Source: Candidatus Shapirobacteria bacterium
GTDB taxonomy: Bacteria; Patescibacteriota; Microgenomatia; UBA12405
Length of the DNA: 64,000 bases
Reading direction: 5' to 3'
Assembly (NCBI GenBank): GCA_041665485.1
Contig: JBAYIT010000001.1
Location: 204,270-268,269, forward strand
A program made the translations under genes and the position numbers. Of the stretch, positions 9,343 through 60,091 are shown in pieces. How positions within the stretch are numbered: the stretch's first letter is position 1; each line of letters starts with the position of its first letter. The notes beneath the pieces were generated by a model. That model was not told the DNA's origin. It searched no databases and saw only the letters and a list, made by a program, of their open reading frames with translations.

Positions 9343-9448
9343 TATTCTGGCTTAAGATAGACTAAATAAAAGATAGGCTTCACTAAAGGCCCTAGGAATG
9401 AAGATAGGTGTTAGATCTTAGTTCTTAGATCTTGGATCTTAGATTAGG

Positions 9449-21217: not shown

Positions 21218-21257
21218 GAATTTACGAATTTACGAATTTACGAATCTGGAAAGATAG

Positions 21258-24915: not shown

Positions 24916-24965
24916 ATCCTAGTTCCTAGTTCCTAGATCATAGATCCTAGTTCCTAGATTTTGGA
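24916..24965. repeat. Family-C repeat (tagatcctagttcc…) in an intergenic position
   Basis: Same heptamer-based element that encodes 'SNIQDLRSK' inside genes at 25330-28365 and 41290-42020. Confidence 0.6.
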
Positions 24966-26508: not shown

Positions 26509-26566
26509 GTGAGAAAATTTTAAATTCTAAATTCTAAATTTTAAATTTTAAATAAAAACAAGATAG

Positions 26567-33000: not shown

Positions 33001-36000
33001 GTGCCAATTCCTAAACCAGAAAAATTAACAGTTCCGCCAACTCCCAAACTTCCAGTTCCACCGACTTGGAGAGTGTAAGAAGGGGTGGTAGTGGCAATAC
33101 CGACTTTACCGGTGGCATCGATTACTAATGCTACGCCACTTGCAAAAGTTTCAGAACCGTATCCAATCTTAAATTTGTGACTATCAGAGCCATCTCTACC
33201 AATCGACCATGAGGTACTTGTATTGGATCTAAAATTTATAACGCTATTGTTTGTAGATTTACCTTGTAAATATAGTAATGCGTTACCAGAGGCGACGTTG
33301 TCTATCATTACCCCAGAAGTCCCCACTATATCTAGGTTAACTCTTGGCCCCGTCGTTCCAATGCCAACATTGCCATTAGCCTTTAAATAAAGTGATTGAG
33401 TATTACCCGTACCCAGGAAAGAAAGATTGTAGGAAGAAAGATTAATGTTGGTGTTTTGAGTAAGTGTTCCACCTAGGCCAATAGATAGTTGATCAGTGCC
33501 AGAGATAGAAGTACCAATACCATTGTAACCAAGAATAGAAGCAGTATTACCAAGACCAATAGATTGAGCAGTACCCAGGGAACCAGCCAACATCCAACTA
33601 ACATTGGCTGATTGAGCATAACGATTATCAAGATCAACAGTGGCCAAAGAAGTGAGATGACCAAGACCATCAAGACCAATGTCTTGAATGACAATACCAT
33701 TACTGTTGTCAGAGGAAGCTTGAGAGGAAGTATCGGCGTGAGAGATAGTGGCACCAACTCCAGTACCGGTAACCACCATACTAGTTCCAGCTTGGAGATT
33801 AAGTAAACCATCAAAGGCCAGACCATTTAAAGCTCTTTTACTAACCACATTATTACTATCGATAAACAAGGCAGTGGTACCAGTACCAGCGACAGTGGAG
33901 GCACTTAAAGTTAAAGTACCACCGATGCCGACATTGGCAGAGAAAGAAGAAGTACCGGTAATACCAATACCACCACTGTTAATGAAAAGTGAATAGGTAC
34001 TATGAGTAGCTCCAACACCTAGTTTAGTAAAGACACCTTCACCAGCTACTTGGAATTTGTAGAGTGGGGCAGTGGTACCAATGCCGACATTACCAGCTGA
34101 CAAGATAGACATGGCATCTACGGGAGTGCCAGCAGTTCGAGTTCTAAAAAAGATACCGCCTAAAACAGCACTATTGTAAGTATTGTCGATATATAGGTTG
34201 GCAACACCATTACCGTTATAGTGAATGAGACCTTGGTAGGCAGCGTTGTTACCAATGGCGACCGAGCCATTATATGCTTGTGCCCCACCGATTGGATCCC
34301 AACCGTTGAACGTTGCTTGGGTGACGGAATTACTATAAACATTAAATGGACTAGTTGGATTAGTCATACCGATGCCTACATTGCCATTGGTAGTAATAGC
34401 CAGGGCTTGGGTGTTGTTATTAACACCCATGATGTAGAGATTGTTAGCACCAGTATTAATGAAAGTATTTTGAGTTAATGTTCCACCTAGACCAATAGAT
34501 AGTTGATCAGTGCCAGAGACAGAAGTACCAATACCATTGTAACCAAGAATAGAAGCGGTATTACCAATACCGACTTGTTGAGCAGTACCAGTATTGCCAG
34601 CCAACATCCAACTAATGTAAGTGTTGTCTTGAAAGGCTAATCCACCTAAAGCTCTTTTACTAACCACATTATTACTATCGATAAACAAGGCAGTGGTACC
34701 AGTACCAGCGACAGTGGAGGCACTTAAAGTTAAAGTACCACCGATGCCGACATTGGCAGTAAAAGAAGTATTGGGAGTAATGGTTAGTCCAAGTCCGGCG
34801 ATAGTAGTTAAGTAGGAAGCATTACCAAAGGTAACAGTAGCACCATTACCCATAAACAAAGGTGACTTGGCAGCAGTAGTAGCAGTAAGAGTGTTGCCAA
34901 CAGAAAGTGTGCCGGTGACACTACCATTACCAGTGACAGACAAAGAAGCGGTAGTAAGAGTGGTGCCAACAGAGAGACTGTTACCAAACACCGAAGCACC
35001 ACTAACTCCAATACCACCAGCGCTGATGGTCAATCCGGCAAAGAGAGGAGTGGAAGAAGTAGTTAGGTGTTGACCAGTGTTAAAGGCAAGTTGGCTGTCA
35101 CCAATAGAATCACCAATGATAGCCAGGGAGACACCAACTCCTTCACCGGCAGTACCAGTAACCCCAATTTGACTATTACCGATAATGGTAGAAACATAAT
35201 TACCGGCAGTTTGAGTGCCGAGAGTAACATCTCCCCAAGAAAGATCACCATGCATAAGTTGGTTGACAGTACCGGAAGTACCAATGAGTTGATTGGTGGC
35301 ATTGGTTCTAACCAGAGTGTTGGCGGTGACATTGGTTAAAGTGAGAGTGTTGCCAATAGAAAGAGTATTGCCAAAAACAGAAGCACCACTAACACCAATC
35401 CCACCCGAGCTGATAGTTAAACCGGCAAAAAGAGGGGTAGCCCCGGTGTGGATGTTTTGAGGAAGAGTTAAAGTAACAGCTCCGGTTTGAGCAGTAGCCG
35501 TAGTGCCATTGGCTAGTATTTGATTGGCAGTGCCAGTTAAAGAAAGGACACCAGTATTAGTAATGGTCAAAGCATCGGTACCGGAAATGGAAGTGCCAAT
35601 ACCACTACCAGCTAAGAAAGAAGCAGTATTACCAAGACCAATAGATTGAGCAGTACCCAGGGAACCAGCCAACATCCAACTAACATTGGCTGATTGAGCA
35701 TAACGAGAATCAAGATCAACAGTGGCTAGGGAAGTCAAATGACCAAGACCATCAAGACCAATGTCTTGGATGACAATACCATTACTATTGTCAGATGAAG
35801 CTTGAGAAGAAGTATCGGCATGAGAGATGGTGGCACCAACTCCGGTACCAGTAACCACCATACTAGTACCAGCTTGGAGATTAAGTAAACCATCAAAGGC
35901 AAGACCATTTAATGCTCTCCGACTAACAACATTATTACTATCGATAAACAAGGCAGTGGTACCAGTACCAGAGACAGTAGAGGCACTTAAAGTTAAAGTA

Positions 36001-39000
36001 CCACCGATGCCAACGTTGTTAGTAAAACTTGAATTACCAGTAACACCAATACCACCAGCATTAACAAAGAGATTTTGAGCAAAGGTAGATCGGCCAGTGA
36101 CAGCCAGAGTACCACCGATACTTAAGTTACCAGTGAGATTACCATTACCACTAACATACAAAGCATTAGTATCTGTTCCTCCTACACCTAACTTAGTAAA
36201 GACACCGGCACCAGCAACTTGGAGAGGGTAAAGAGGGGCAGTAGTGCCGATACCGACGTTGCCACCACTTTTAATAGTGACATTTGCAGTATTATTCGTC
36301 CCCAAAATAACGTCATTAGTACCATAAGTTCCTATTACTAAACCTCTTCCCGTTCCACCATTAGGGTTATTTATAATAAAATCATTGGCGTTTCTAGCTG
36401 CTCCCAAAATTGAAGCTACATTATTATTGACACCTGGAACCATAAAAGCCAGGTACTGTCCAGTCGTATCTCCTACCATAAAGCGAAAATCAGCATTAGT
36501 TCCTGTACTTGTATTTTTCATCTGAACCCCTGATATACCGTCCACGTTGTCGCTAATTAAAACCTTTGGAACTGATCCAGAAAGTATGGGGGTAGTAATC
36601 AGACCTCCAATATCAAAAGTGGCATATGGACTTGTAGTCCCAATACCAACATTGCCATTGGTAGTAATCGCCAGAGCTTGGGTGTTGTTATTAACACCCA
36701 TGATGTAGAGATTGTTAGCACCAGTATTAATGAAAGTATTTTGAGTAAGTGTTCCACCAAGGCCAATAGATAATTGATCAGTGCCAGAGACAGAAGTACC
36801 AATACCATTGTAACCAAGGATAGAAGCGGTATTACCAATACCAACTTGTTGAGCAGTACCAGTATTGCCAGCCAACATCCAACTAATGTAGGTGTTGTCT
36901 TGAAAAGCGAGTCCGCCGAGAGCTCTCCGACTAACAACATTATTACTATCGATAAACAAGGCAGTGGTACCAGTACCAGCGACAGTGGAGGCACTTAAAG
37001 TTAAAGTACCACCGATGCCGACGTTGGCAGTAAAAGAAGTATTGGGAGTAAGAGTAATTCCGGAACCAAGAATGGTGGTTAAACCACTGGCATGACCAAG
37101 AGTAAGAGCACTACCATTGTTACTAAAGATGGGAGAGAAAACAGAGGCAGAGAAAGTAGGAGCATTAGTAGTACCAATGGTGACAGTAGAACCAGAGATA
37201 GTATTTAAGATGTTAGTGCCATTGGCAAAATTAACAGTAACACCAACACCGATAGCAGTACTACCAGCACCAGTAGCTTGCAAAAACCAACGATCATCAC
37301 TACCACTCTTATCCCAACTACTAGTATCAAGATAACCAATCAAACCACTATTACCAGAAAGGAAAGCCGCCACACTTGATCCACCAATGGCAGTGTTACT
37401 TAGATTTAAAGAAGCAGTGGTGGTGGTGGTGCCAACACTTAAATCAGCATTAGTGTAGATAGAAGCGGTTGAAGTCCCACCTACCCCTAGTTTAGTAAAG
37501 ACACCAGCACCAGCAACTTGGAGGGGATAAAGGGGAGCGGTGGTGCCGATGCCGACATTGCCAGCCGTAGTAATCGCCAAAGCTTGGGTGTTGTTATTAA
37601 CACCCATGATGTAGAGATTGTTGGTGCCAGTGTTAATGAAAGTGTTTTGAGTAAGTGTTCCACCTAGGCCAAATGTAATTTGACTAGTACCAACTGAAGT
37701 AGAGGTAATACCATTTAGACCAGTAAAGGATAAAGTGGTGCCACCACTGATGGTTTGATTACTAGAAGCTTTAGCAATCCAGTTGTAGGTACTAGCAGTA
37801 CTATCGAGGAAAGCTAGAGCACCTAATGCTCTTTTACTAACGACATTATTACTATCAATAAACAAAGCAGTGGTACCACTACCAGCAACAGTGGAAGCAC
37901 TTAAAGTTAGAGTACCACCGATGCCGACGTTGTTAGTAAAACTTGAATTACCAGTAACACCAATACCACCAGCATTAACAAAGAGATTTTGAGCAAAGGT
38001 AGATCGGCCAGTAACAGCCAGAGTGCCACCAACATCAAGGTTGGTGGTAAATCGACCACTGCCGGTAACATCAAGTTTGTAGGCGGGGGAAGTGTTGCCA
38101 ATACCAACCGAGCCGTTGGCTTGAATGTAAAGATTGGTGTTGGCGCCAGATCCGGAAGTAATTTTGAGAGAATAATTGGAGGAAGAGGTGGAGCCAATAT
38201 CGAGATTGAGACCATTGCCGGAAGAATTTGACGAAACAAGAGAGGCAAGGTTACCAGAGCCTGATGAACCGATACTAAAAACAGTGCCAGTGGCTTTGGT
38301 GTAAAGCTGGGAGAGGTTAAGAATGTTGGCAGTGTCGGAACATGATCCGGAAGACTCGGTGCATTTGGAGGAGAAATTGACCAAGGGGTTAAGGATACTA
38401 AGACTACCGCCGGTGGCTGGTTGGAGAGAAACGGTGGCGCCGGCCCAGATGGAGAGGGTGTTGATGGTGTAACTACTGCTGGTGTTAGCGGCGCCGATTT
38501 GGTAACTGGCAACTCCGGTCACTTGATTAATGCCCTGATTCCAGAGAGATGTTTGCCCGGCTCCAAGGGTAACTGTTCTAACGTTATTAACAGACAGAGT
38601 GGAAAAAACAATTTCTGAAGCATTACTACTAGTGCCGATGGAAAGGTTGGTATTCATGCCACTGGCGGTAGTGGCAACGCCAATAGGGGTAATTTGATTA
38701 ACATTGTAAAAACTGGCAGCGCCGGCGACGAGGCTGGCAGCTTGACCGGACATGGTGATTCCGATGCTGTAAGTGCCAGGAGTAGGGGCAACCAGATACC
38801 AAATATCGGCCCAGGTTTGAGTGCCGGAGGCGGTGGTGGCTTTGGTGAGTGGGGTACCGTTCCAGTAAATGCCGGAAACGGTGCGGGTAAGACTGTTTTG
38901 ATAATTGACACCGACAATTAAAATGTTGTTGGAGTTATTGCCAACTGTGTGGTTGAAATTGAGATTGGTGGTATTACTGACACCGATGGAAGAATTGGCA

Positions 39001-41522
39001 TCGGCGGTGATGGTGGCGCTTCCGCCGGTTATATTGGCGGTTAGATTTCTTAAAACCGAGAGGTCATTATTATTGACAGTGGAATTTCCGGTGTAAGTGG
39101 TGTCGTTGATAATATCTAACTTATTAGTGGGGCTGGTGGTGCCAAGGCCAAAATTGCCGGTGCCAAAAAAGCCGAAGTTATTGCCATTAAGATCGATTTT
39201 GGTGAGTTGGTTGAGAGTGCCACCGAGACCAACAGTTCGAGAAGTTTCAGTTAAGCCGTTGTTGAAAGTATAGGCACTGCCAAAAGCCAGAGCACCAAGA
39301 ATGTTTTTGTATAAATTGCCAGAGGCATCAGTAAAGACGGCGGTGGTGCCGGTGCCAGTAGAACCAAGGCCTAAACCACTAAAATTAACCGTACCACCAA
39401 CTCCCAAACTTCCTGTTCCCCCGACTTGGAGTCTGTAGGTAGGATTGGTGGTGCCGATACCAACATTGCCGATATTTGTAATTGTGACCCTATCGTTAGT
39501 TCCTAAAGCACCAGTGTTGTTAGAAAAGGTAAACGCCCCCGAATTACTATTATCAGCTCCAATTGTCCAAGCGTTTGCTCCCTGAGTGGTATCAAAATAT
39601 ATAGATGGGTCTCCGGCCAAACCTCCTGCAGTTTTAATTATAATTCCTGCGTTAGAATTAGCCGTGTTACTGGTATTTTGTATCGTCATTCCATTGTTGC
39701 CACCTGAGTTACTACCACCAACTGTGAATGCAGGTAATCCGTTTGCGTTTATGGTTACAGCTCCAGTGAAGTTGCCATCTCCAGCAACATTAAGAAGGGC
39801 AGTAGCGTGGGTACCACCAATACCTAATTTAGTGAAATTACCAGCACCATTAACGTCAAGAGTGTAGAGAGGGAGGGTGGTTCCAATTCCGACATTGCCG
39901 GATCCGTCGATAGTTAATCTTCGGGTAGCATTTGTATATAAACTAAATTTGTTGTTTCCGGCAACACCGATTAGTGCATTTGTGGCTGTTCCTGAATCAA
40001 AGCCCGCATCACTTCCCCAATAAGATAAAGCCGTACTACCGACTTTTAAATATTGATAGGTTCCACTGGCAGCTACGCCGTTGATGGTAATTGCACCTGA
40101 TACTTCTATTTTTGTAGTTGGGTTGGTTGTTCCGAGGCCGACTCGGCCAGTGGCGTAATCGAAATACATAACTTCAGTATTACCAATATTAAGTCTGGTA
40201 TTTTGGGTGAGGGCGCCGCCGAGGCCGAAAACATTAGTAGAGATAGCGGATAAACCATTGGTGGTGGAGTAAGTCGTGCCGATGGCGGTGTCGGAGAAAG
40301 CCAGAGAACCGAGAACACGGCGGGTGATAATGTTGGTGGATGGATCAATGAAGAGGGCGGTGGTGCCGGCGCCAACGATAGTGGAGTTTGAAAGGGTTAG
40401 AGCGCCACCAATGTAAACGTTGCCGGAGGCGCCAACGGAAAAACGAGTATTCAATTGAGTGTTGCCAACCCCTAAATCGTAGTTTTGAAATTGAAGAAAA
40501 TTGTAATTATTGGAATAGTTACTTCTGACGATGCCGGAATAAAGATTACCGGAAACCATGTTGGCGTCGGCTTCGGCTTGAACAAAGCCACCAACAGCAG
40601 GGGCGTTCATTTCAAAAGAAAGATCAAGAATGCCGCCAGCATCGGGGTTGATGGTGATGTTGCCACCACTGCCGTCGCTAGCTTTGAGGAGCATGGCTTG
40701 GCCTTCGATGCCAAAAGTGCCGGAAACTGATTTGATGGTGGGGGAGGTTTCGCCAAGGTTGAGGTTGCCAGAGTTATCAAAAACAGCGACGGTATTTTTG
40801 TAACCGATGCCGGAGGTGCCAAGGCCCAAACCCTGAAGAGTTTCGGAATTAAGGGCATAGGCGACGGTGGCAATTTGCTGGCGGGGGTCCATTACTTCGG
40901 TGCCGGCGGTAATTTCTAGCCAAACTTCGGCGTTTTCAGAGAAAACGCTGGGAGGGATTTCAGTGCCGTGAGTTTTGCCAATGACGACATTAAAAATGCC
41001 ATTGTCGTCGGGTTTAACAACTTGACTATTGCCGGTGCCGGAGGTGTAGAGAGAGGTGCCGGCGCCAAGCGTGCCATTGTTCCAGAGTTTAAAAATAATG
41101 CCGGTTTCGGAAGTGATGGGATTGCTGTAGGAATCGGTGAGACGGCCTTGAAAGGAGAGAATTCTGCCGGGGCGGATGGGGGAGGAGGTGGTGGAATAGG
41201 CAAGGTTTTTGCGGGCTTTGAGGATGGTTTGGGAATAGAGGCCGTAGGTGAGACCGGCGAATAATATGAGGAGGGTGGAGAGAACGAGATAACGACTAAA
41301 TGAGATCCTAGATGTTAGATCCTGGATCCTAGATTGGAGGTTGGATGGGGTTGGGGATGGTGGTTGGTAACTGGTAATAAACTTCTTTTTAATTAAGAAT
41401 TTTTTGAAGACGGAGATAGAGGAGAGCTTGCGGTTGATGGTGGCGGGGGAAAGATTTTGGGACTTTAAGTAGTCTTGGTAGGAGGAGAGACGAGAATGAT
41501 CGAAATACTCTTTGAGTTGCAA
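27021..41522 (-). CDS. Giant (4833 aa) membrane-anchored surface protein with tail-fibre-like repeats, an N-terminal integrase core-binding-like domain and the C-terminal 'WWIIN' domain
   Basis: Single uninterrupted ORF. N-terminus 'SYQDYLKSQNLSPATINRKLSSISVFKKFL' (tyrosine-recombinase SAM-like motif), then TM 'YLVLSTLLILFAGLTYGLY'. More than 4000 aa of G/T/S/N-rich repeats with 'GNVGIGTT.P.YKL.V.G'. Five 'SNIQDL(R/K)SK' motifs. C-terminus '…IDNPLDHNIDINWWIIN'. Confidence 0.8.
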   Translation of the reverse strand: MQLKEYFDHSRLSSYQDYLKSQNLSPATINRKLSSISVFKKFLIKKKFITSYQPPSPTPSNLQSRIQDLTSRISFSRYLVLSTLLILFAGLTYGLYSQTILKARKNLAYSTTSSPIRPGRILSFQGRLTDSYSNPITSETGIIFKLWNNGTLGAGTSLYTSGTGNSQVVKPDDNGIFNVVIGKTHGTEIPPSVFSENAEVWLEITAGTEVMDPRQQIATVAYALNSETLQGLGLGTSGIGYKNTVAVFDNSGNLNLGETSPTIKSVSGTFGIEGQAMLLKASDGSGGNITINPDAGGILDLSFEMNAPAVGGFVQAEADANMVSGNLYSGIVRSNYSNNYNFLQFQNYDLGVGNTQLNTRFSVGASGNVYIGGALTLSNSTIVGAGTTALFIDPSTNIITRRVLGSLAFSDTAIGTTYSTTNGLSAISTNVFGLGGALTQNTRLNIGNTEVMYFDYATGRVGLGTTNPTTKIEVSGAITINGVAASGTYQYLKVGSTALSYWGSDAGFDSGTATNALIGVAGNNKFSLYTNATRRLTIDGSGNVGIGTTLPLYTLDVNGAGNFTKLGIGGTHATALLNVAGDGNFTGAVTINANGLPAFTVGGSNSGGNNGMTIQNTSNTANSNAGIIIKTAGGLAGDPSIYFDTTQGANAWTIGADNSNSGAFTFSNNTGALGTNDRVTITNIGNVGIGTTNPTYRLQVGGTGSLGVGGTVNFSGLGLGSTGTGTTAVFTDASGNLYKNILGALAFGSAYTFNNGLTETSRTVGLGGTLNQLTKIDLNGNNFGFFGTGNFGLGTTSPTNKLDIINDTTYTGNSTVNNNDLSVLRNLTANITGGSATITADANSSIGVSNTTNLNFNHTVGNNSNNILIVGVNYQNSLTRTVSGIYWNGTPLTKATTASGTQTWADIWYLVAPTPGTYSIGITMSGQAASLVAGAASFYNVNQITPIGVATTASGMNTNLSIGTSSNASEIVFSTLSVNNVRTVTLGAGQTSLWNQGINQVTGVASYQIGAANTSSSYTINTLSIWAGATVSLQPATGGSLSILNPLVNFSSKCTESSGSCSDTANILNLSQLYTKATGTVFSIGSSGSGNLASLVSSNSSGNGLNLDIGSTSSSNYSLKITSGSGANTNLYIQANGSVGIGNTSPAYKLDVTGSGRFTTNLDVGGTLAVTGRSTFAQNLFVNAGGIGVTGNSSFTNNVGIGGTLTLSASTVAGSGTTALFIDSNNVVSKRALGALAFLDSTASTYNWIAKASSNQTISGGTTLSFTGLNGITSTSVGTSQITFGLGGTLTQNTFINTGTNNLYIMGVNNNTQALAITTAGNVGIGTTAPLYPLQVAGAGVFTKLGVGGTSTASIYTNADLSVGTTTTTASLNLSNTAIGGSSVAAFLSGNSGLIGYLDTSSWDKSGSDDRWFLQATGAGSTAIGVGVTVNFANGTNILNTISGSTVTIGTTNAPTFSASVFSPIFSNNGSALTLGHASGLTTILGSGITLTPNTSFTANVGIGGTLTLSASTVAGTGTTALFIDSNNVVSRRALGGLAFQDNTYISWMLAGNTGTAQQVGIGNTASILGYNGIGTSVSGTDQLSIGLGGTLTQNTFINTGANNLYIMGVNNNTQALAITTNGNVGIGTTSPYATFDIGGLITTPILSGSVPKVLISDNVDGISGVQMKNTSTGTNADFRFMVGDTTGQYLAFMVPGVNNNVASILGAARNANDFIINNPNGGTGRGLVIGTYGTNDVILGTNNTANVTIKSGGNVGIGTTAPLYPLQVAGAGVFTKLGVGGTDTNALYVSGNGNLTGNLSIGGTLAVTGRSTFAQNLFVNAGGIGVTGNSSFTNNVGIGGTLTLSASTVSGTGTTALFIDSNNVVSRRALNGLAFDGLLNLQAGTSMVVTGTGVGATISHADTSSQASSDNSNGIVIQDIGLDGLGHLTSLATVDLDSRYAQSANVSWMLAGSLGTAQSIGLGNTASFLAGSGIGTSISGTDALTITNTGVLSLTGTANQILANGTTATAQTGAVTLTLPQNIHTGATPLFAGLTISSGGIGVSGASVFGNTLSIGNTLTLTNVTANTLVRTNATNQLIGTSGTVNQLMHGDLSWGDVTLGTQTAGNYVSTIIGNSQIGVTGTAGEGVGVSLAIIGDSIGDSQLAFNTGQHLTTSSTPLFAGLTISAGGIGVSGASVFGNSLSVGTTLTTASLSVTGNGSVTGTLSVGNTLTATTAAKSPLFMGNGATVTFGNASYLTTIAGLGLTITPNTSFTANVGIGGTLTLSASTVAGTGTTALFIDSNNVVSKRALGGLAFQDNTYISWMLAGNTGTAQQVGIGNTASILGYNGIGTSVSGTDQLSIGLGGTLTQNTFINTGANNLYIMGVNNNTQALAITTNGNVGIGMTNPTSPFNVYSNSVTQATFNGWDPIGGAQAYNGSVAIGNNAAYQGLIHYNGNGVANLYIDNTYNSAVLGGIFFRTRTAGTPVDAMSILSAGNVGIGTTAPLYKFQVAGEGVFTKLGVGATHSTYSLFINSGGIGITGTSSFSANVGIGGTLTLSASTVAGTGTTALFIDSNNVVSKRALNGLAFDGLLNLQAGTSMVVTGTGVGATISHADTSSQASSDNSNGIVIQDIGLDGLGHLTSLATVDLDNRYAQSANVSWMLAGSLGTAQSIGLGNTASILGYNGIGTSISGTDQLSIGLGGTLTQNTNINLSSYNLSFLGTGNTQSLYLKANGNVGIGTTGPRVNLDIVGTSGVMIDNVASGNALLYLQGKSTNNSVINFRSNTSTSWSIGRDGSDSHKFKIGYGSETFASGVALVIDATGKVGIATTTPSYTLQVGGTGSLGVGGTVNFSGLGIGTTGVGTTAVFIDSSGNLYKNVLGAGAFTSGAGTLYTAGVGISLSSTNVFSNIGVTSILGTTNQITASNPTGAVTLSLPQNIHTGATPLFAGLTISSGGIGVSGASVFGNTLSIGNTLTLTNVTANTLVRTNATNQLIGTSGTVNQLMHGDLSWGDVTLGTQTTGNYATSNAEGGPALSLYGEDNRSIGPTEVNTSNLKFGFTAYNNNSAGPWADFLHLNSYLDGSGGNQNLLEFNKSSLGMRLYQGSFGSTAAYTTYKDIALVDNNPISGYLTKFTGTTATVSITNSLIYDSGTNIGLGTTNPLYKLHVTGEGVFTKLGVGGTSTASIYTNADLSVGTTTTTASLNLSNTAIGGSSVAAFLSGNSGLVGYLDTTAWDKNGANDFIAATNGLQSIGTSSVGLGGTLTQNTNIGVSSFGLSFLGINSNTQALYIASSGNVGFGTTAPSQKVDISGNLNLSGHLVGGDGTNAPANLINNGNFDYWNIGTSSIPDAWISNGGTFSRDTGYKSTYSLKMVDGGAWQGAKYTVPPRSTLTTARKYTLNFWYKSSSTNTLPLQLGVYDGTSYIVAYGNQTLIKDDAWHWQSTNFTIGDDKTISIFMLTNTGTSHAGDTDWIDSVSLYEGDQANAFSTNYNDYLKYGSVSMFGPLGIGATNSSYKLNVSGSANITTNLTIGGTFVSVGSTNTVTNLSADLLDGQHGSYYLNIGNTGDFVQNQFTADQTANLRINGNAMFGGNVGIGATSTAKLNVIGNGNFTTNLSIGGTLSVGSSATISANGIITGTKFVDIGNTAYYFNTSNSTSISDSSLSLYQSGSIRFNAVAVGSTLRHIVSNAATQIRGYSNGLLLASSTSTTGDITGWDNQLFLNSTGNVGIGTTAPLYKLHVNGDALISTRLGIGSTNALYLLNVGGTASFTNLHASGNVGIGTTAPTSSLHLYSTTGSANNPQLTLTSSPSSPGRYSPSIVFQNNDGSSAGWIGSASRITGGFERGSSWVNSALGFDVGNASAGLSRAMTITNYGNVGIGTTNPLYKLEVNGDALISTRLGIGSTNALYLLNVGGTASFTNLYTTGNVGVGTTAPGYTLDVNGIIKSNNTIYSLTTAGTTPKFILVETGRSTWTLSQPTTTSAFHIDQDGNSRLFIQNSTGNVGIGITNPTYKLQVVGNGYLSTSLSVGSSLIVAGGDIKQGGTDDLRLWAGSGNDFYFYKSDGSVSARIDVSTAAGAETLDQGFTGPNNSFAVYGTRLFSQSFTPQASGSLSKVTLQLWKVGAGSYNFSVQLQNCDGNQPNGTVVATSSNIANTSIGETASPGAEYSLTFSTKPYLQAGTKYCLVTTTSTGGDGSNYINVREKDSSSTYTGGQAGYYNGSVWDTASYTAVDMYFKQYYQNNYGSVLHIGSVDTANADLAENYPSTQNLSTGELVTFDLENTGHVLRAQAGSQKLVGVVSTNPGLLLGSSETSQNVYPIALSGRVPVKITLENGAISPGDPLTASTTIEGRAQKATTSGPIIGKALESSSSCSDPGNCTILALVQPSWFDPDTLLTLDTLGQIVTSPETNIQDPGSKIYHLTSSNGSAVTRLGQFSQALIANLKAGIINTSKLVSNDIETQTITPISNTGIGSTLKIGGDTEVIGSLFAQNIKTPSLNVDHLDSLTSNIQDLKSKTITAQDIGVTTLSANAITALTSNIQDLRSKDATISGILYADQIISREGNFGDLMTQKISALRDEVKKIIDTSTVTTPPEDVLLSQSENWLADISTGSAQITGSLALTDNLVVAGQLAVAGQAELADALISGTLQSGQIIIKDNLIETTASVLYIQPSKVGTINIMNNTLIIADNGDVTVNGNIYLNGTLTAQTATISGSLSTYLITASDIQTTSLTALTSNIQDLRSNKLTILPNVAIAQADPSESATQSAEIASNTTAGTTTLIAGQTEIIILNNQLTSASMVYLTPVGSTNNQVIYIKDKYIDPTSNIQDLKSSFTIAIDNPLDHNIDINWWIIN

Positions 41523-41568
41523 ATTTAATAATTTAAAAATTTAAGAATTTAAAAAATTTTGGAAATTG

Positions 41569-47885: not shown

Positions 47886-48649
47886 TAGTACTTAGGAATG
47901 GCAGTAAAATTAATAGAATTTTGGTATTGGCCCTCGGGTTGGAGAGGGGAGATGTTAACTTTGTAGGTGATTTGATTGATATGATCTTTGACGGGGGAAT
48001 TTTCTGAGGCAATGATTTGGGGAATTTCGCTAGTTGCTTGGTTGGCAAATTGGCGGTAGTGGGAGGTGGTGGCAAAATAGGTGGTGGCGCCGGGGCCGGA
48101 GGCGCCGATGCCAAAGCCGTATTTGGAATCGTCGTCCCAAAGAGCGGAGGTGGTTTCGGAACAATTGGCAAGATTGCAAGTGGTGTCGGGAATGGTTTGA
48201 CCGATTGAATTGGTGAGGGGGTGATTTTGAGAAACAGTGACGTCGTAGCCATGACCAGAGGGCGTAGTGATGGTGAGAGTGTTGGTAAGAGTGGTGCCAA
48301 CATTGGGGGTAAGGGAGCCAAAATTTAGATCGAGATTATCAATTTCAAAAGAAAATTTATTAATTAGGATGTCGTAGATGTATTGAAAACCCATTTTGGC
48401 AGTGTAGCCATTGGAATCAAATTGGCCGGGGGCATTTTGACCAACGGTGTCGGTTAAAGAATAGTTGTTGGATGATTTTTTGCCGGATGTCATATTGAAA
48501 TTACCCCAGTCGATAGTGTAGGTGGCGGATTCAAAATGTTGGGATCGCGCCGGAGGCGGAAATAACAAATTACAAAAAACAATTTCCAAACAAATCCCAA
48601 TGACCAAAACCGGCAAATTTTTAATTTTTAATTTTAAATTTTTAATCAA
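47885..48649 (-). CDS. WxL-like surface protein, 254 aa
   Basis: Signal peptide encoded by the family-B repeat. C-terminal '…QPEGQYQNSINFTAIPKY' is WxL-like. Confidence 0.45.
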   Translation of the reverse strand: MIKNLKLKIKNLPVLVIGICLEIVFCNLLFPPPARSQHFESATYTIDWGNFNMTSGKKSSNNYSLTDTVGQNAPGQFDSNGYTAKMGFQYIYDILINKFSFEIDNLDLNFGSLTPNVGTTLTNTLTITTPSGHGYDVTVSQNHPLTNSIGQTIPDTTCNLANCSETTSALWDDDSKYGFGIGASGPGATTYFATTSHYRQFANQATSEIPQIIASENSPVKDHINQITYKVNISPLQPEGQYQNSINFTAIPKY

Positions 48650-48711
48650 TTTGAAATTTTCAATTTTAAAAATTATTTAGAAATTAGAAATTGGAAATTA
48701 GGATTTAGACT

Positions 48712-50189: not shown

Positions 50190-50990
50190 ATGAGAGAGTA
50201 TTTTTTGGAAGTAGTTTACAGGAGTCTACCTCCACAAGAGGCGGGGTTAATGGCGGGGATGGTGTGGGGAGACAGAAGTGGGTTTTCTCTCGAATTAACC
50301 AACAGCTTGAAGGATAGTGGGTTGTGGCATTTGGTGGTGGTGTCGGGAGCCAACGTGATGATTTTGGCTCGGATGTTGGTAGAATTATTGGCGCCTCTAA
50401 TTGGCCGAAAAAAAGCAATTGGGGTGATGATGGTTATGACTTGGGGGTATGCCGGAATTGTGGGGTGGGAGATGCCGGTGGTGCGGGCGATAATTCTGAT
50501 GTCGATTTACTATTGGGCCCAAGTCTTGGGGAGAAAGTTTGATGTTTGGCGGTCTCTCATGTTGACTGCTATTTTGGTGTTGGTGGCTGACCCGGAGGCG
50601 GTAGGGAGTTTGAGTTGGTGGTTATCGGTTGTCGCCTTTATTGGAGTAATAACTGGGAAAAATTTAAATACTTTTTGGCAGACGATTTGGGTGGGGGTGT
50701 GGGTGACGCCACTTTTGGCAGTGGCCATAGGCAAAATAAGTTGGATATCGCCGTTGGCCAATGTGGCAGTATTGTTTATGGTGGAAGTAATAACTGTAAT
50801 AGGGTTGATAGGGACATTAACGGGGGGTTGGCTATTGTGGGCGGCAATGCCGTTACTGAGGTGGTTGCTAGTGGTGGCCGGGGCAGCAGGGAAGGCAGGG
50901 GTGGTAAATTATCAATTTAATTGGCTGATGGTTATTGGTTGGTATAGTCTACTTTTTTGGTATTTATGGAAAAACAAAATTAAATCTTAA
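50190..50990 (+). CDS. comEC: ComEC/Rec2, N-terminal 'competence' channel domain
   Basis: 'GLWHLVVVSGANV' corresponds to the ComEC 'HLLAISGLHV' motif. Multiple TM helices. Confidence 0.75.
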   Translation: MREYFLEVVYRSLPPQEAGLMAGMVWGDRSGFSLELTNSLKDSGLWHLVVVSGANVMILARMLVELLAPLIGRKKAIGVMMVMTWGYAGIVGWEMPVVRAIILMSIYYWAQVLGRKFDVWRSLMLTAILVLVADPEAVGSLSWWLSVVAFIGVITGKNLNTFWQTIWVGVWVTPLLAVAIGKISWISPLANVAVLFMVEVITVIGLIGTLTGGWLLWAAMPLLRWLLVVAGAAGKAGVVNYQFNWLMVIGWYSLLFWYLWKNKIKS

Positions 50991-50997
50991 AAAAATA

Positions 50998-51089
50998 CGT
51001 CATTGCGAGGAATAGTTACAAAAGTGACGAAGCAATCTCGATGAGATCGCCAGGTCTCCCGATAGTTATCGGGATCCTCGCGATGACGT
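50998..51089. repeat. 99-nt palindromic element (terminal inverted repeats acgtcattgcgagg / cctcgcgatgacgt) between the two comEC ORFs
   Basis: A second copy lies at 57133-57217. Internal hairpins are cccgata.ttatcggga, and gacgaagcaatc in one copy is present as its reverse complement gattgcttcgtc in the other. Both flanking ORFs are in the same frame (50190 ≡ 51090 mod 3). Confidence 0.7.
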
Positions 51090-51101
51090 GTGTATTGTTT
51101 T

Positions 51102-51854
51102 ATGAAACTTAAAATAAGTTGGTTGGTAGTTGCTGTCTGGCTCTTGATGGTTGGTTGGGTGGCGTGGGGGGAATTTAAAAAACCAAAACAGGTGGTAATA
51201 TTTTGCAATGTCGGGCAGGGGGATATGGCGATTGTGATTGACGGCGGATTTCAGATGATAGTTGACACCGGCCCGACAGGGAGAGCTGGTGTTGAGTGTC
51301 TTGAACGAAATTTACCAATTTGGGACAGAAAAATTGAAGTAGCGATTATTACCCATGGAGATGCTGATCATAGTGGTGGGTTAGTAGAAATTCAAAAAAG
51401 TTACTTGGTGGAAAAAATAAATGTGAGTGAAGGTGATGTGGTGAGATATGGTGAGGTGGAGTTTAGAGTGATTAGCGGGTCTCTCGACTTTGCTCGGGAT
51501 GAAAATGAGGGGAGTATTATTGGAGTTTTGGAATATGGGGATAAAACTTTCTACATGATGGCGGATGCGACGGCGGAGATGGAACAGGGACTGGTTTGGC
51601 GACAGAAGTTAGAATCTACGAATTTACGAATCTACGAATCTAGAGTTTTGAAGGTGAGTCATCATGGCTCGAGGGACGGGACGACGAAAGAATTGTTGGA
51701 GACGATAAAACCGGCAGAGGCGGTGATTAGTGTGGGGAAAAATAATTACGGCCATCCGGCGACGGAGACAATAAAAAGACTGGAGGAGTTTGAAGTGAGG
51801 GTGAGGAGGACGGATCGGGAGGGGGATATCACTTATAAAATTTTAAATTTTTAA
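51102..51854 (+). CDS. comEC: ComEC/Rec2, C-terminal metallo-β-lactamase domain
   Basis: TM helix, then 'VIFCNVGQGDMAIV' and 'HGDADHSGG' (the HxHxDH motif). The ORF-track start GTG 51090 lies inside the palindromic element, so ATG 51102 was preferred. Confidence 0.75.
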   Translation: MKLKISWLVVAVWLLMVGWVAWGEFKKPKQVVIFCNVGQGDMAIVIDGGFQMIVDTGPTGRAGVECLERNLPIWDRKIEVAIITHGDADHSGGLVEIQKSYLVEKINVSEGDVVRYGEVEFRVISGSLDFARDENEGSIIGVLEYGDKTFYMMADATAEMEQGLVWRQKLESTNLRIYESRVLKVSHHGSRDGTTKELLETIKPAEAVISVGKNNYGHPATETIKRLEEFEVRVRRTDREGDITYKILNF

Positions 51855-51968
51855 TTTGAAATTTTTAGTCAAAACTAAATGTTTTAATCCGTCTGAGCCG
51901 GACAAGTTTTAAAATTTAAGAATTTAAAATTGATTAAAAATTAAAAATTGTAAATTAAAAATTAGACT

Positions 51969-52949
51969 TTACTGATTTAGGGAGACTTGTTTGTAGACCA
52001 GGTCGGCGATGCCACGGATGGTGGCGGAAAGTTTGTTGAAGTCTTGGCCCCGAGTCATAATGCAGATGAGGTAGGGTTTTTGAGGATGATAGACGATACC
52101 GCAGTCGTGGAGTTGTTTGAGGCTGGTATCAAATTTTCTTTCACCATATTTGTGGGAGCTTTTGATGTTTTTAGGAGTCACAGCAGTAAGGCCTTGATTA
52201 AACGTGCTTTGGGAGAGAAGAGAAAGAAGTTTTTCGGAGTTGGTTTGATTTAAATAACTGGCGTTGTAAAGAATACGGAAAAATGAGGCATAATCCTTGA
52301 CGGAAATGATGTTGCCGCCTGGGTCGGAAAAACCCTTACTGATGTCAATGCCTAAATCAGAATAGGTTTTGACGATTTCTTGGTTGTCGATGGATTTTTC
52401 GAGAAGTTCGTAGGCAACATTGTCGGAATATATAATCATCCTTTTTAGTAATTCTTCAACAGAGTAAGTTTGATTGAGTTCGAGTTTAGTTTCGGGTTGA
52501 AAATTTTGGTTTTGATATTCGGAGAGTGAGGTAACGGAAAGCTCTTTGGTAAGAATTTGAGGGTCAGATTCTGAATGTTTAAGATAAGTGATGGCGGTGG
52601 GCACCTTAACCAGAGAGGCGGGAGAGAAAAATTCGTCTTGATTGATACCAAACCAGGGGCCATTATTGAGGTCACGAAAATAGACAGCAACAAAATCGAC
52701 AAGGCCAGAAGATTTAAGAGAGTCGATTTTTTGGGAAATAGCGTCTTCAAGAGAGTGAAGAACGCCTTTTGACGAGCTTAGGGCCGGGTCACACTCGATG
52801 AGGGGATTAATAAATTGGTACTTTTGGGGATTACGAGTTTCAGAAAAACTAGATTGAAGTGAAGAAGAGAAAATTTTAGTTAAACCGATGCCCAGGGCAA
52901 GGCCGAGAGTGAGAGAAATGACGATTATCGGGACTTGGCGATTAAACAT
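51969..52949 (-). CDS. Serine β-lactamase / penicillin-binding-protein-like (class A-like) secreted protein
   Basis: N-terminal TM/signal segment. 'SLVK' (SxxK) and 'YSDN' (SDN) motifs with 'HKYGE' in place of KTG. About 326 aa. Confidence 0.5.
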   Translation of the reverse strand: MFNRQVPIIVISLTLGLALGIGLTKIFSSSLQSSFSETRNPQKYQFINPLIECDPALSSSKGVLHSLEDAISQKIDSLKSSGLVDFVAVYFRDLNNGPWFGINQDEFFSPASLVKVPTAITYLKHSESDPQILTKELSVTSLSEYQNQNFQPETKLELNQTYSVEELLKRMIIYSDNVAYELLEKSIDNQEIVKTYSDLGIDISKGFSDPGGNIISVKDYASFFRILYNASYLNQTNSEKLLSLLSQSTFNQGLTAVTPKNIKSSHKYGERKFDTSLKQLHDCGIVYHPQKPYLICIMTRGQDFNKLSATIRGIADLVYKQVSLNQ

Positions 52950-52964
52950 TTCTAGGTGTATAAT
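52935..52964 (+). promoter_or_regulatory. Candidate promoter for the leuS leader: TTGGCG, 18 nt, TG-TATAAT
   Basis: -35 at 52935-52940 and -10 at 52959-52964. The predicted TSS lies close to the leader-peptide ATG at 52972. Confidence 0.4.
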
Positions 52965-52971
52965 AGCAAAT

Positions 52972-53004
52972 ATGTTAATTAACCTCCTTCTCTTGTTGGC
53001 TTAA
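52972..53004 (+). CDS. Leu-rich leader peptide MLINLLLLLA (10 codons) upstream of leuS
   Basis: 'atg tta att aac ctc ctt ctc ttg ttg gct taa'. Six of the ten codons are Leu, five of them consecutive. Confidence 0.45.
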   Translation: MLINLLLLLA

Positions 53005-53007
53005 AAG

Positions 53008-53054
53008 GCGGGGGTTAAAGGAAAAGCACAACCCCGCAAGAGCGGGGTTTTTTA
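53008..53054 (+). terminator. Attenuator: antiterminator (53008-53016 with 53030-53037) alternating with an intrinsic terminator (53030-53037 with 53042-53049, followed by a T-run)
   Basis: Segment 2 'gcgggggtt', segment 3 'aaccccgc', segment 4 'gcggggtt', then 'tttttag'. Segment 3 can pair with either partner. leuS starts at 53071. Confidence 0.5.
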
Positions 53055-53070
53055 GTTTAAAATAATAAAA

Positions 53071-55623
53071 ATGGCGGAAGAAAATAAATTTAAAGAAATT
53101 GAATCTAAATGGCAGGATTATTGGAATAAAAATCCTGATTTATATTCGGCTAAAGATAATTCGGATAAACCTAAAAAATATGTTTTAGTGGAGTTTCCGT
53201 ACCCGTCTGGATCGGGGTTACATATCGGTCATGCTTTTTCGTTTACTGGGGGAGATGTCTATGCTCGGTTTAAACGGATGCAGGGGAATAATGTGATGTT
53301 TCCAATGGGTTGGGATGCTTTTGGCTTACCGACAGAAAACCATGCAATAAAAATGAAACGCAGGCCACAGGAGGTAACTAAGGAAAATACCGATAATTTT
53401 AGAGAGGAGATGAAAAAGCTGGCTTTTTCGTTTGATTGGAGCCGGGAAGTAAATACAACCGACCCTGATTATTATAAATGGACACAGTGGATATTTATAA
53501 AATTATTCGAGAAGGGGTTGGCATATAAGCAAGAAATGCCAATTAACTGGTGTCCTAGTTGTAAAATTGGGTTAGCAAACGAGGAAGTCATCGATAATAA
53601 ATGTGAGAGATGTGGGGCGGAGGTATCCAGACGTAATATTAGCCAGTGGGTGGTAAAAATTACCGATTATGCGGATAGATTAATTGATGGTTTGAAAGAG
53701 ACGGATTTTATTGAAAAAGTAAAGCAGGCACAGATTAATTGGATTGGACGCTCGCAGGGAGCTCGCATTAAGTTTCAAGTTAAAAGTTTGTCAAGTTTAT
53801 CAAGTGTTAGAAAGTTAGAAGTATTTACCACCAGGGCGGATACGTTGTGGGGAGTAACATTTATGGTGATCAGCCCGGAACATCCATTCGTCGCTTCGCT
53901 CCTTAAGTCGAAAGTTATAAAGTTAGAAAGTTTGAAAGCAGTTGAAGATTATGTAAATCAGGCGAGGAAAAAGAGTGATTTAGAGAGGGCGGAATTGCAG
54001 AAAGAAAAGACAGGAGTGTTTACTGGGGTGTATGTGGTTAATCCGGCTAATGGCAAAGAAATTCCTCTGTATGTGGCCGATTACGTGTTAATGGGTTATG
54101 GAACAGGGGTGGTGATGGGTGTGCCGGCGCACGATCAGAGGGATTGGGATTTTGCCAAGAAATATAATTTGGAAGTAATTCCGGTGATAGAAGATGGTGG
54201 ACATGATTATGTAAAAGAAGCAATGGTGAGTGTTGATAAAGGCAAGATGATTAATTCCGGGTTTGCAACAGGAATGGAGGTGAAAGAAGCGATCAATAAG
54301 GTTAATGAGTGGGTGGAAAAGGAGGGGATAGGCGAGAGAACCAATATGTATCATTTACGAGATTGGATATTCAGCCGGCAACATTATTGGGGAGAACCTA
54401 TACCAATGATTTTTTGCGAAAGTTGTGCAAAAAATCAGAATCTAGAATCTAGAATCAAGAATCAAGAAGAAAACAGAAAAAAAATAAATGCAGGGTGGTA
54501 TCCGGTTCCGGAAGAGCAATTGCCGATTAAATTGCCCGAGGTAGAGGCTTATGAACCGACAGATACAGGGGAGTCGCCACTGGCGAAAATGACTGATTGG
54601 GTTAAAACGACATGTCCTAAGTGTGGTGGGGAGGCAAAAAGAGAGACAGATACCATGCCCAACTGGGCTGGATCAGATTGGTATTTTCTAAGATACTGTG
54701 ATCCTGTTAATGATACAGAATTAGCTAGTCAGGAAAAGATAAAATACTGGATGCCGGTGGATGTTTATGTGGGTGGAGACGAACACAATACTTTGCATCT
54801 ACTTTATTCTAGATTTATATATAATTTTCTATTTGACTTGGAGGTAGTACCAACACCAGAGCCATATAAAATAAGAATGTCACACGGTGTCATACTAGGT
54901 CCAGATAGCCAGAGGATGAGCAAATCGAGAGGAAATGTGGTGGTGCCATCAGTAGTGGCGGACAAGTACGGAGTTGATGTGCTAAGGTTGTATTTGATGT
55001 TTATGGGACCATTCGATTCGACAATGGTATGGAATGAAAAAACGGTGATGGGAGCAAAAAGGTTTCTTGATCGCTTCGCTCAATTTATCAAAATCCAATT
55101 TTCAATTTTCAATGAAACTGTAGAAAGTAGCAAGGAAGTTAAGGTGATAATTAATAAATTGGTGGCGGGAGTAACGAGGGATTTGGAGAGTTTTGGCTAT
55201 AATACGGCCATAGCAAAGCTTATGGAAGCTTTGCATAAATTTTCAAAATCCAATTTTCAATTTTCAATTGAGGACATAAAAACGCTGATTAAGTTATTGG
55301 CGCCGTTGGCGCCGTACACTGCAGAAGAATTGTGGAGTCAAGTTAGAGACAAGGATGATGATGATGTTTCGGTGCATGTGGCGCCGTGGCCGAGGGTGGA
55401 GGAGAAGTACTTGGTGGAGGAGACTGTGACTATGCCGGTGATGGTAAATGGGAAAGTGAGAGAGCAGATCGTAGTTGATAGATCGTCGATCGTAGATAAG
55501 AAGAAAATAGTTAAAATGGCGAAGGAGAAAGAGAAGATAAAAAAGTGGTTGGAGGAGTGTGAAATATTAAAGGAAATCTATGTTCCAGGGAAACTAGTGA
55601 ACTTTGTTGTCAGTACAAAGTAG
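53071..55623 (+). CDS. leuS: Leucyl-tRNA synthetase
   Basis: 'HIGHAF' (HIGH motif), 'RMSKSRGN' (KMSKS motif) and a Zn-binding 'CERCG' editing-domain layout. 850 aa. Carries in-frame repeat insertions (see findings). Confidence 0.95.
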   Translation: MAEENKFKEIESKWQDYWNKNPDLYSAKDNSDKPKKYVLVEFPYPSGSGLHIGHAFSFTGGDVYARFKRMQGNNVMFPMGWDAFGLPTENHAIKMKRRPQEVTKENTDNFREEMKKLAFSFDWSREVNTTDPDYYKWTQWIFIKLFEKGLAYKQEMPINWCPSCKIGLANEEVIDNKCERCGAEVSRRNISQWVVKITDYADRLIDGLKETDFIEKVKQAQINWIGRSQGARIKFQVKSLSSLSSVRKLEVFTTRADTLWGVTFMVISPEHPFVASLLKSKVIKLESLKAVEDYVNQARKKSDLERAELQKEKTGVFTGVYVVNPANGKEIPLYVADYVLMGYGTGVVMGVPAHDQRDWDFAKKYNLEVIPVIEDGGHDYVKEAMVSVDKGKMINSGFATGMEVKEAINKVNEWVEKEGIGERTNMYHLRDWIFSRQHYWGEPIPMIFCESCAKNQNLESRIKNQEENRKKINAGWYPVPEEQLPIKLPEVEAYEPTDTGESPLAKMTDWVKTTCPKCGGEAKRETDTMPNWAGSDWYFLRYCDPVNDTELASQEKIKYWMPVDVYVGGDEHNTLHLLYSRFIYNFLFDLEVVPTPEPYKIRMSHGVILGPDSQRMSKSRGNVVVPSVVADKYGVDVLRLYLMFMGPFDSTMVWNEKTVMGAKRFLDRFAQFIKIQFSIFNETVESSKEVKVIINKLVAGVTRDLESFGYNTAIAKLMEALHKFSKSNFQFSIEDIKTLIKLLAPLAPYTAEELWSQVRDKDDDDVSVHVAPWPRVEEKYLVEETVTMPVMVNGKVREQIVVDRSSIVDKKKIVKMAKEKEKIKKWLEECEILKEIYVPGKLVNFVVSTK

Positions 55624-56358: not shown

Positions 56359-56772
56359 CCTACGCTCTTCGAGCTTCGGCGGGCAATGCCCGCTTCTACT
56401 CGTAGTCAAGGCTACGGCAGGTAAACCCGCTCTAGCCTTGTAGGTATGAGTATTATAAATGATAAATAGGACTTTTGAATTACAGGATAGGTGGGGTAGT
56501 GATGGCTTTGTTTATATAGATTTATCTTAAATAGTGTTTTGATATATATATTGAAATCTTGGTTAATAAAAATTAGCAGGAGCGGGAGATGAATGCCAGA
56601 GAACTTAATGGTTAATTGGGGTGGGGGGTAGGGGGGAATTTAGAATATACGAATCTAGAATCTAGAATCTAGAATTACGAAATAAGGAACAAGTTTGTAA
56701 ATAATTAATTATAAATATAGGATATTTTAGGATGGGCTTGACAAAGGAGGGGAAAATACCTAGACTTAATTT

Positions 56773-59579: not shown

Positions 59580-60091
59580 TACATTCCAAAATCTTAACTT
59601 GTAATATTTTGGAATAATTTCTAATTTCCAATTTCTAATTTCCAAAAAAAGACAATATAAATCTAAATTAGAAATAAGAGATAAGAGATAAGAATTAAGA
59701 TAGTTTCTGTTGATATATAGATAAATAGTTTGAGTAAAACAGTTGTTCAATATGATTAGTAATTGGTAATTAGTAATTGGTAATTGGTAACTTATAATAA
59801 GTTTGGCGAAGAATAGGTGATATAGTTATGTAAATAGACTTATAAAGTGATAGTTTTTGGGGCGAATTTTAGCTTATAATGGTGAAAAATTAAGAATTAT
59901 AGAGAGATTTGCTAAAAAAAATTTAAGAATTTAAAAATTTAAGAAAATGGATTGGTTTGAACTAGAGAGGAAAGTGGAGTTTGATATAGTTTTATTAAAA
60001 AAATAGATAAAATTTTAAATTTTAAATTTTAAATTGAGGCTGAAGATAGCTAGTTTTTATAATATTTTAGTTTTGGCAGGAGGGAGAGGGA

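Follow-up and report, generated by a model that had tools for sequence, protein, structure and literature searches.

A predicted leucine-responsive leader-peptide attenuator in front of leuS in Candidatus Shapirobacteria

How does a bacterium from the Candidate Phyla Radiation (CPR/Patescibacteria), a group of uncultured organisms with reduced genomes about whose gene regulation, to our knowledge, almost nothing is known, adjust the production of an aminoacyl-tRNA synthetase? The question is raised by the spacer located in front of leuS, the gene encoding leucyl-tRNA synthetase (LeuRS), on a Candidatus Shapirobacteria contig of which a 64-kb stretch (called here the window) was analysed. From this spacer and its counterparts in related bacteria, we propose, with a probability of about 0.75, that leuS is preceded by a functional Leu-responsive, ribosome-mediated transcription attenuator, which would sense charged tRNA-Leu and set the read-through into leuS. 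Since the group to which the host belongs has, as far as we know, no amino-acid biosynthesis, tuning the synthetase to tRNA charging would be a sensible output.

The leuS gene (850 aa, plus strand, 53071-55623) was assigned on the basis of its tRNA-synt_1 and Anticodon_1 Pfam domains and of identity searches, in which its product was 100% identical to an annotated Candidatus Shapirobacteria LeuS and about 67% identical to the next-best relatives. The spacer ahead of it is 121 nt long and is bounded on its far side by a divergent Beta-lactamase2-family gene (51969-52949, minus strand). All the elements described below are carried by the plus strand. The putative promoter P1 consists of a -35-like hexamer TTGGCG (52935-52940), which is a consensus match only and falls within the 5' end of the divergent gene, and of a -10 box TATAAT (52959-52964) placed after an 18-nt spacer and immediately preceded by TG (52957-52964 for TG and box together); the two hexamers make 10 of 12 consensus matches. 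An open reading frame (ORF) encoding MLINLLLLLA follows (52972-53004, with its TAA stop codon at 53002-53004), six of its ten codons being Leu codons, and the predicted regulatory run reads CTC CTT CTC TTG TTG (52984-52998). Downstream are found segment 2 (53002-53018), whose core GCGGGGGTT occupies 53008-53016, segment 3 (AACCCCGC, 53030-53037) and segment 4 (GCGGGGTT, 53042-53049), the latter continued by a T-tract to 53053 (53042-53053 in all). Segments 3 and 4 are the two arms of a predicted terminator (53030-53053) with an 8-bp stem, an AAGA loop, a U6 stretch and a free energy of -14.3 kcal/mol, and the core of segment 2 can alternatively pair with segment 3 to give an antiterminator. 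The ATG of leuS lies 21 nt past the end of the terminator stem and 17 nt past the end of the T-tract, and the whole leader measures 82 nt. P1, the ORF and segments 2, 3 and 4 had all been proposed in a first-pass annotation made from the sequence alone and were found again base for base. That annotation gave no segment 1. In the minimum-free-energy (MFE) fold of the window leader, the stretch 52979-52995, which overlaps the Leu codons, pairs with 53002-53018 to form a hairpin 1:2 beside the terminator 3:4; segment 1 would thus be the 5' arm of an anti-antiterminator, and the full four-segment arrangement of an attenuator is present.

Concerning the transcription start, leaderless translation, termination in vivo and the response to leucine, we infer the following course of events. 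The P1 transcript would begin at the first base of the start codon (52972) or beside it, and ribosomes would then read the 10-codon ORF on a leaderless mRNA. As long as no ribosome is stalled, segment 1, which contains the Leu codons, would pair with segment 2, the 3:4 terminator would form and transcription would stop at the U-tract (53050-53053). A ribosome having reached the stop codon (53002) would cover the beginning of segment 2, located 6 nt further on, and termination would again be the outcome. By contrast, when charged Leu-tRNA is scarce, the ribosome would stall on CTC CTT CTC TTG and hold segment 1, leaving segment 2 free to pair with segment 3; the terminator would then be blocked, the polymerase would read into leuS and more LeuRS would be made. 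A second and probably weaker promoter-like box at leuS may supply basal, unregulated expression.

A first expectation from this model, already formulated in the first-pass annotation, was that the leader ORF and its hairpins should be conserved upstream of leuS in relatives. The leuS loci compared were taken from genome and metagenome collections and from an exact-protein look-up, and the numbers of leader-bearing loci are given as at least so many among the matches listed. The same module stands 5' of leuS in at least 10 other Shapirobacteria-like loci, whose LeuS proteins are 57-68% identical. Leaders were recognised by eye in L001, L004, L008, L009, L026, L083, L087, L161 and L164, and a further one, in L088, was recovered by a covariance model (R1) built from the first ten leaders. 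R1 matches the leaders with E-values of 1e-7 to 1e-17, and gave no significant match in 94 non-CPR leuS loci nor elsewhere in the window. The module was seen only at leuS and nowhere else in 1.2 Mb. In L088 an ORF of 76 aa (1763-1993), which contains a CxxC motif and has no Pfam match, is located between the Leu leader with its terminator and leuS, so that the attenuator would govern a two-gene unit there. A scanner that requires a short ORF with at least three consecutive Leu codons, a stop within four codons and a hairpin with a T-tract within 100 nt returned 11 hits in 2.39 Mb of sequence read on both strands, nine of which are leuS leaders and two weak others; the chance of such a hit landing in the 121-nt leuS spacer is about 1e-4. 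With the scanner, R1 and a terminator search, no further copy of the module and no paralogous attenuator was found in the window.

The predicted secondary structures are shared by these leaders. MFE folds of all 11 of them contain hairpins 1:2 and 3:4, with the Leu-codon region paired to segment 2, and the sub-folds have energies of -11 to -23 kcal/mol for 1:2, -9 to -15 kcal/mol for 2:3 and -10 to -14 kcal/mol for 3:4. Helix 1:2 is long, reaching about 19 bp. The 2:3 hairpin of the window leader has an energy of -11.1 kcal/mol and a z-score of -3.35, and the z-scores of this hairpin range from -1.7 to -5.0 in 10 of the 11 leaders. Within the 64-kb window, 3:4 is the only intergenic intrinsic terminator identified by strict criteria. 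In an Infernal alignment of the 1:2 core and 3:4, 87.7% of the cells are paired, six pairs show changes on both sides and none of 500 shuffles reached the score (0/500); slid controls scored clearly lower. In the terminator, double compensatory changes affect three of the six modelled pairs. RNAalifold recovers both helices as well, the plain MAFFT alignment being structurally imprecise and yielding only the helix cores. Conservation and covariation, two of the checks suggested along with the first-pass annotation, are both borne out in the ten further loci.

Because the helix registers differ between species, we also used an alignment-free partner-swap test, in which the duplex energy of each segment with its own partner is compared with the energies obtained when the partners are swapped between species (n = 11). 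Pairing was partner-specific for 1:2 (p = 2e-5), for 2:3 (p = 1e-4) and for 3:4 (p < 2e-5), whereas the control pairing 1:4 was not (p = 0.54). The L088 leader, which starts at 1677, entered this test with coordinates shifted by 1 nt, to negligible effect. The two alternative pairings originally put forward, 2:3 as antiterminator and 3:4 as terminator, were therefore recovered both in the sub-folds and in the swap test, and segment 1, which folds, covariation and partner-swap all support, has to be added to them.

The position of the ORF relative to these segments is also constrained. In 10 leaders, 5-10 nt separate the first base of the stop codon from the start of segment 2 (6 nt in the window), an in-frame stop lies 2-7 nt 5' of segment 2 in all loci, and the first Leu codon of the window leader is located 24 nt 5' of that segment. 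A ribosome covers about 12-13 nt 3' of its A-site codon. With segment 2 starting 5-10 nt past the stop, a terminating ribosome would mask it, and a ribosome stalled at the Leu codons would keep segment 1 occupied and segment 2 accessible; the placement of the stop and of the Leu codons thus fits classical attenuation.

The ORF itself bears the marks of a coding sequence. The Leu run counts 3-5 codons in 11/11 leaders, and the pyrimidine run is open in the Leu frame alone in the 9/9 complete leaders examined, the Phe and Ser frames being closed. The homologous leader peptides (..FVLTLLLLA, MFTLTLLLLVA, MKLLIVSLLLN, MMKVSLTLLLLA, (V)NIKFNSLLLM, MKKSIKLLLLVLA, MKLNNGLLLLS, MKMLSVSLLLS, MKKVTNCLLLLI and MTVLSLNLLLLAH) vary in sequence, and every one closes with 3-5 Leu residues followed by 1-3 residues and the stop. 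In the CTN CTN CTN core of the 11 leaders, codon positions 1 and 2 are invariant and variation (C, T or A) affects each of the three third positions, the probability of three variable columns among nine all being third positions being 1/84. Two of the third-position changes give CTA, by which Leu is kept and the pairing with the opposite G is lost. It should also be noted that CTC and CTT account for only 4% and 13% of the Leu codons in the plus-strand genes of the window, and that CCCC occurs 56 times on the plus strand vs 414 times for GGGG; given this scarcity of C-runs and of CTC and CTT codons, the C/U-rich segments are maintained against the mutational bias.

This compositional bias is a general property of the window. 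The GC skew of the plus strand amounts to 0.3-0.43 in 4-kb bins over 8000-64000, whatever the orientation of the genes, an extreme G>C disparity that makes Leu codon usage strand-specific: TTG represents 40% of the Leu codons in plus-strand genes, and CTC 31% in minus-strand genes. The skew falls to 0.07-0.2 along a single ORF of 4833 aa (27021-41522, minus strand). The same strand disparity has been published for the Microgenomates order UBA1400 (PMC7143001).

How would the leader ORF be translated? No Shine-Dalgarno sequence precedes it in the window. A -10 box of the TGn-TAnAAT type is found 5-7 nt 5' of its start codon in 9/9 leaders for which the 5' flank is available (7 nt in the window), and the 5' AUG remains unpaired in the folds, the 10 leaders with a complete 5' end beginning with 4-12 nt outside any pair. 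With no Shine-Dalgarno sequence and a start 7 nt after the -10 box, translation of the ORF would have to begin on a leaderless mRNA, and the fixed distance from -10 box to start codon is consistent with the leaderless initiation that we predict. Shine-Dalgarno sequences precede few genes of the window, several genes carry a -10 box 6-7 nt 5' of their ATG, and leuS itself looks leaderless in relatives that have no attenuator leader; leaderless initiation is therefore plausible in this lineage. The P1 -10 box moreover overlaps, within 52956-52964, a minus-strand -10-like TATACA located 7 nt 5' of the ATG with which the divergent Beta-lactamase2 gene begins. The divergent pair thus appears to be served by overlapping promoters placed back to back, and leaderless starts are possible on both sides.

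Several observations weigh against the attenuator as proposed here. The single-sequence fold of the window leader is unremarkable (z = -1.69), and promoter-like hexamers are no more frequent in the sequence than in shuffles. When base pairs are counted in fixed columns of the model-fitted alignment, 2:3 is 69% paired and 279 of 500 shuffles do as well, because the register of this helix differs between sequences; it is therefore from the alignment-free tests that the antiterminator draws its support. Canonical terminators are otherwise near-absent from the window, which leaves it in question how efficiently intrinsic terminators work in this lineage. The leader is also far from universal, as about 24 of about 35 distinct Shapirobacteria-like loci among the matches listed, or about two thirds, do not carry it. 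The remaining points bear on leuS and its immediate 5' side. The motif TAWAAT is present 5-9 nt 5' of the leuS ATG in 8/11 leader-bearing loci vs a shuffle mean of 0.69, and none of 20000 shuffles (0/20000) reached 8. In a read-through mRNA, leuS would have no Shine-Dalgarno sequence. Finally, the stretch between terminator and leuS is 77-102 nt longer in L009 and L083 and contains promoter-like motifs there.

With regard to the distribution of the leader, its absence from relatives had been named by the first-pass annotation as an observation that would speak against an attenuator; at least ten relatives carry the leader and about 24 distinct ones do not. In a neighbour-joining (NJ) tree of LeuS, the window clusters with four other leader-bearing loci and one without, and the other leaders are dispersed over a poorly resolved radiation, the deep branches being so star-like that losses and gains of the leader cannot be counted. 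That the relatives without leader arose by deletion between the direct repeats formed by segments 2 and 4 was considered and not retained: L166 is suggestive, but L167 and L170-L172 do not contain the motif.

The box in front of leuS gives rise to the best of the rival explanations. In the window it reads TAAAAT (53058-53063, 7 nt 5' of the leuS ATG) and is designated here as candidate second promoter P2. In relatives without leader, the leuS ATG is often found 5 nt after a TGTAGTAAAAT-type box (TAAAAT-N5-ATG), so that leuS itself looks leaderless there. P1, the ORF and the terminator could then merely produce a separate terminated mini-transcript with no useful read-through, leuS being expressed from a leaderless P2 only and the hairpin serving to insulate P2 against transcription coming from upstream. 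The enrichment of the box, its identical geometry in relatives without leader, the lengthened gaps of L009 and L083 and the lack of a Shine-Dalgarno sequence for internal initiation at leuS all speak for this scheme. However, insulation requires no Leu-codon run kept open as a conserved frame and no covariation of segment 2 with segments 1 and 3 alike, and it leaves unexplained a module restricted to leuS, or to the 76-aa ORF and leuS in L088, and absent elsewhere in 1.2 Mb. P2 in the window is also accompanied by neither a -35 element nor the TG motif of P1-type promoters, and many internal genes of the window have no Shine-Dalgarno sequence, hence internal initiation without one must work in this organism. 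We regard an mRNA made from P2 only as improbable, and retain the attenuator with the amendment, suggested by the arrangement of motifs, that basal expression of leuS probably comes from a leaderless promoter P2, next to the attenuator-controlled read-through from P1. Expression of leuS may thus be partly independent of read-through, and P2 would leave the attenuator standing as one of two inputs. The first-pass annotation had also held that a leuS mRNA starting downstream of the hairpin would speak against its reading; given the P2 motif, part of the leuS mRNA may have such a start, and this would not invalidate the attenuator.

As for the lengthened gaps, the distance from terminator to leuS is increased by 102 nt in L009 (2893-2994) and by 77 nt in L083 (1924-2000). 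The promoter-like boxes within them are GGTGATAAAAT in L009 and TATAAT-N5-ATG in L083. The L009 gap also contains a hairpin, ATCCCGA...TCGGGAT, which is similar to a hairpin found in the window at about 51060-51080.

A second rival, less probable again and in our judgement very unlikely, dispenses with translation: the pyrimidine-rich segment 1 and the G-rich segment 2 would make up a structured leader, a trans-acting factor (a tRNA, or a protein such as LeuRS) would set the choice between 1:2 and 2:3, and the Leu codons would be a by-product of pairing between C/U and G. The length of helix 1:2 (up to about 19 bp) and its good covariation are in keeping with such a switch, CUY repeats are expected in a strand that pairs with a GGRGG run, and the ORF has no Shine-Dalgarno sequence. 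If pairing were all that mattered, however, C/U swaps opposite G would be tolerable anywhere, yet only third positions vary and the variants include an A that breaks the pairing; nor does an RNA switch of this kind account for a constant, leaderless spacing between -10 box and start codon, for a stop placed 2-7 nt 5' of segment 2 in all loci, or for closed Phe and Ser frames, and the leader has no T-box-like specifier or T-box sequence. Finally, a chance meeting, within an AT-rich spacer, of a hairpin and a short ORF rich in Leu, in favour of which only the single-sequence z-score of -1.69 and the unenriched promoter-like hexamers can be quoted, is effectively refuted by the comparative data, namely an architecture common to ten independent relatives with compensatory changes, a scanner background of 2 hits per 2.39 Mb and covariance-model E-values of 1e-7 to 1e-17.

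Taken together, these results largely support the ribosome-mediated attenuator first suggested for this spacer, in its elements, their conservation and their covariation, once segment 1 is added. If it operates as proposed, CPR bacteria monitor tRNA charging through coupled transcription and translation, and leaderless mini-ORFs can act as sensors, as in Streptomyces. The covariance model R1 in addition provides a compact and testable RNA element for surveys of CPR genomes. We would advance a further, more specific interpretation only tentatively, as we rate it well below even odds: that this is the first documented ribosome-mediated attenuator in CPR, in which a leaderless mini-ORF is stacked immediately onto a second promoter of leuS, itself leaderless, so that leucine starvation would add a leadered read-through mRNA to a constitutive leaderless mRNA. 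An attenuator stacked on P2 in this manner would imply that transcription-translation coupling and amino-acid sensing take place in ultra-small, biosynthetically dependent bacteria, and that the module was lost repeatedly across Shapirobacteria. Our literature searches found no prior report of attenuators or T-boxes in CPR/Patescibacteria.

Some further features of the window were recorded. Most of its gene boundaries are occupied by short tandem repeats with a period of 7-8 nt and 3-7 copies (AAATTTT, TAGATCC, GAATCTA, GAATTTAC and others), for example at 9411-9444, 21218-21245, 24913-24959, 26515-26553, 41521-41555, 48616-48670, 51909-51964, 56636-56681 and 59751-59802. A repeat of 7-nt period, AATCAAG in 5.3 copies, is also found within the leuS coding sequence (54433-54468, NQNLESRIKNQEENRKK region) and may be a lineage-specific insertion. 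A ComEC-like function is split over two ORFs, with a Competence domain at 50190-50990 and a Lactamase_B domain at 51090-51854, and relatives show the same split gene calls.

How does the leuS leader compare with known systems? Its best match in Rfam is Phe_leader (RF01859, 'Phenylalanine leader peptide'), with 27.2 bits vs a gathering score of 55, and it is not a member of this family, nor of Trp_leader (RF00513; 16.9 bits vs 41) or Leu_leader (RF00512; 15.1 bits, on the opposite strand, vs 50). Like leuS here, pheST of E. coli is an aminoacyl-tRNA synthetase operon under attenuation. Unlike in Phe leaders, the regulatory codons are Leu and not Phe codons, and the start is predicted to be leaderless, whereas the pheST leader uses a Shine-Dalgarno-dependent start. 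In enterobacterial leuL (RF00512), a run of Leu codons in a leader peptide likewise controls the choice between terminator and antiterminator; the genes controlled there are biosynthetic ones and not a synthetase gene.

The first-pass annotation had contrasted the leader with the T-box control usual in Gram-positive-type bacteria. In the T-box of leuS in Firmicutes (RF00230), low charging of tRNA-Leu also relieves a terminator before leuS; there the uncharged tRNA is sensed directly by an RNA of about 200 nt, whereas the leader described here has 82 nt and neither a specifier loop nor a T-box sequence. RF00230 gave no match at the gathering score in the window and none at E<=10 in 52700-53300, the leuS loci of Firmicutes used as positive controls (L028 and L034) scored 143-146 bits, and no T-box was found in the other CPR loci searched with Rfam. 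The absence of a T-box thus stands, and the contrast drawn from it is only loosely apt, the host being a CPR bacterium.

Attenuation of a synthetase gene had also been presented as a departure from the norm; it is not without precedent, as leuS attenuators have already been described in Streptomyces. Classical attenuators were predicted 5' of leuS and trpS in these bacteria (Seliverstov et al. 2005, PMC1262725), pheST being the gamma-proteobacterial example of such a control at an aminoacyl-tRNA synthetase operon (PMC1262725), and in S. lividans TK24 a leaderless leuL2 (MRAVRLLLSEPR) and a terminator precede leuS, with similar leaders at alaS, thrS and trpS (PMC8079986). The Streptomyces and Shapirobacteria leaders share the gene, leuS, a short ORF with a run of Leu codons, reported as leaderless in S. 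lividans and predicted to be so here, then a hairpin and U-stretch, and predicted antiterminator/terminator alternatives. By contrast, Streptomyces belongs to an unrelated phylum and has a high-GC genome, the published leuL2 peptide MRAVRLLLSEPR, judged by eye, has nothing in common with the Shapirobacteria peptides beyond the Leu run, and in the Shapirobacteria leader helix 1:2 is very long and the terminator is followed at once by a candidate second promoter. The Shapirobacteria leader is probably of independent origin. Leader-peptide attenuation at leuS is known from Streptomyces and no new mechanism is involved; what is new, as far as our literature searches show, is its occurrence in CPR.

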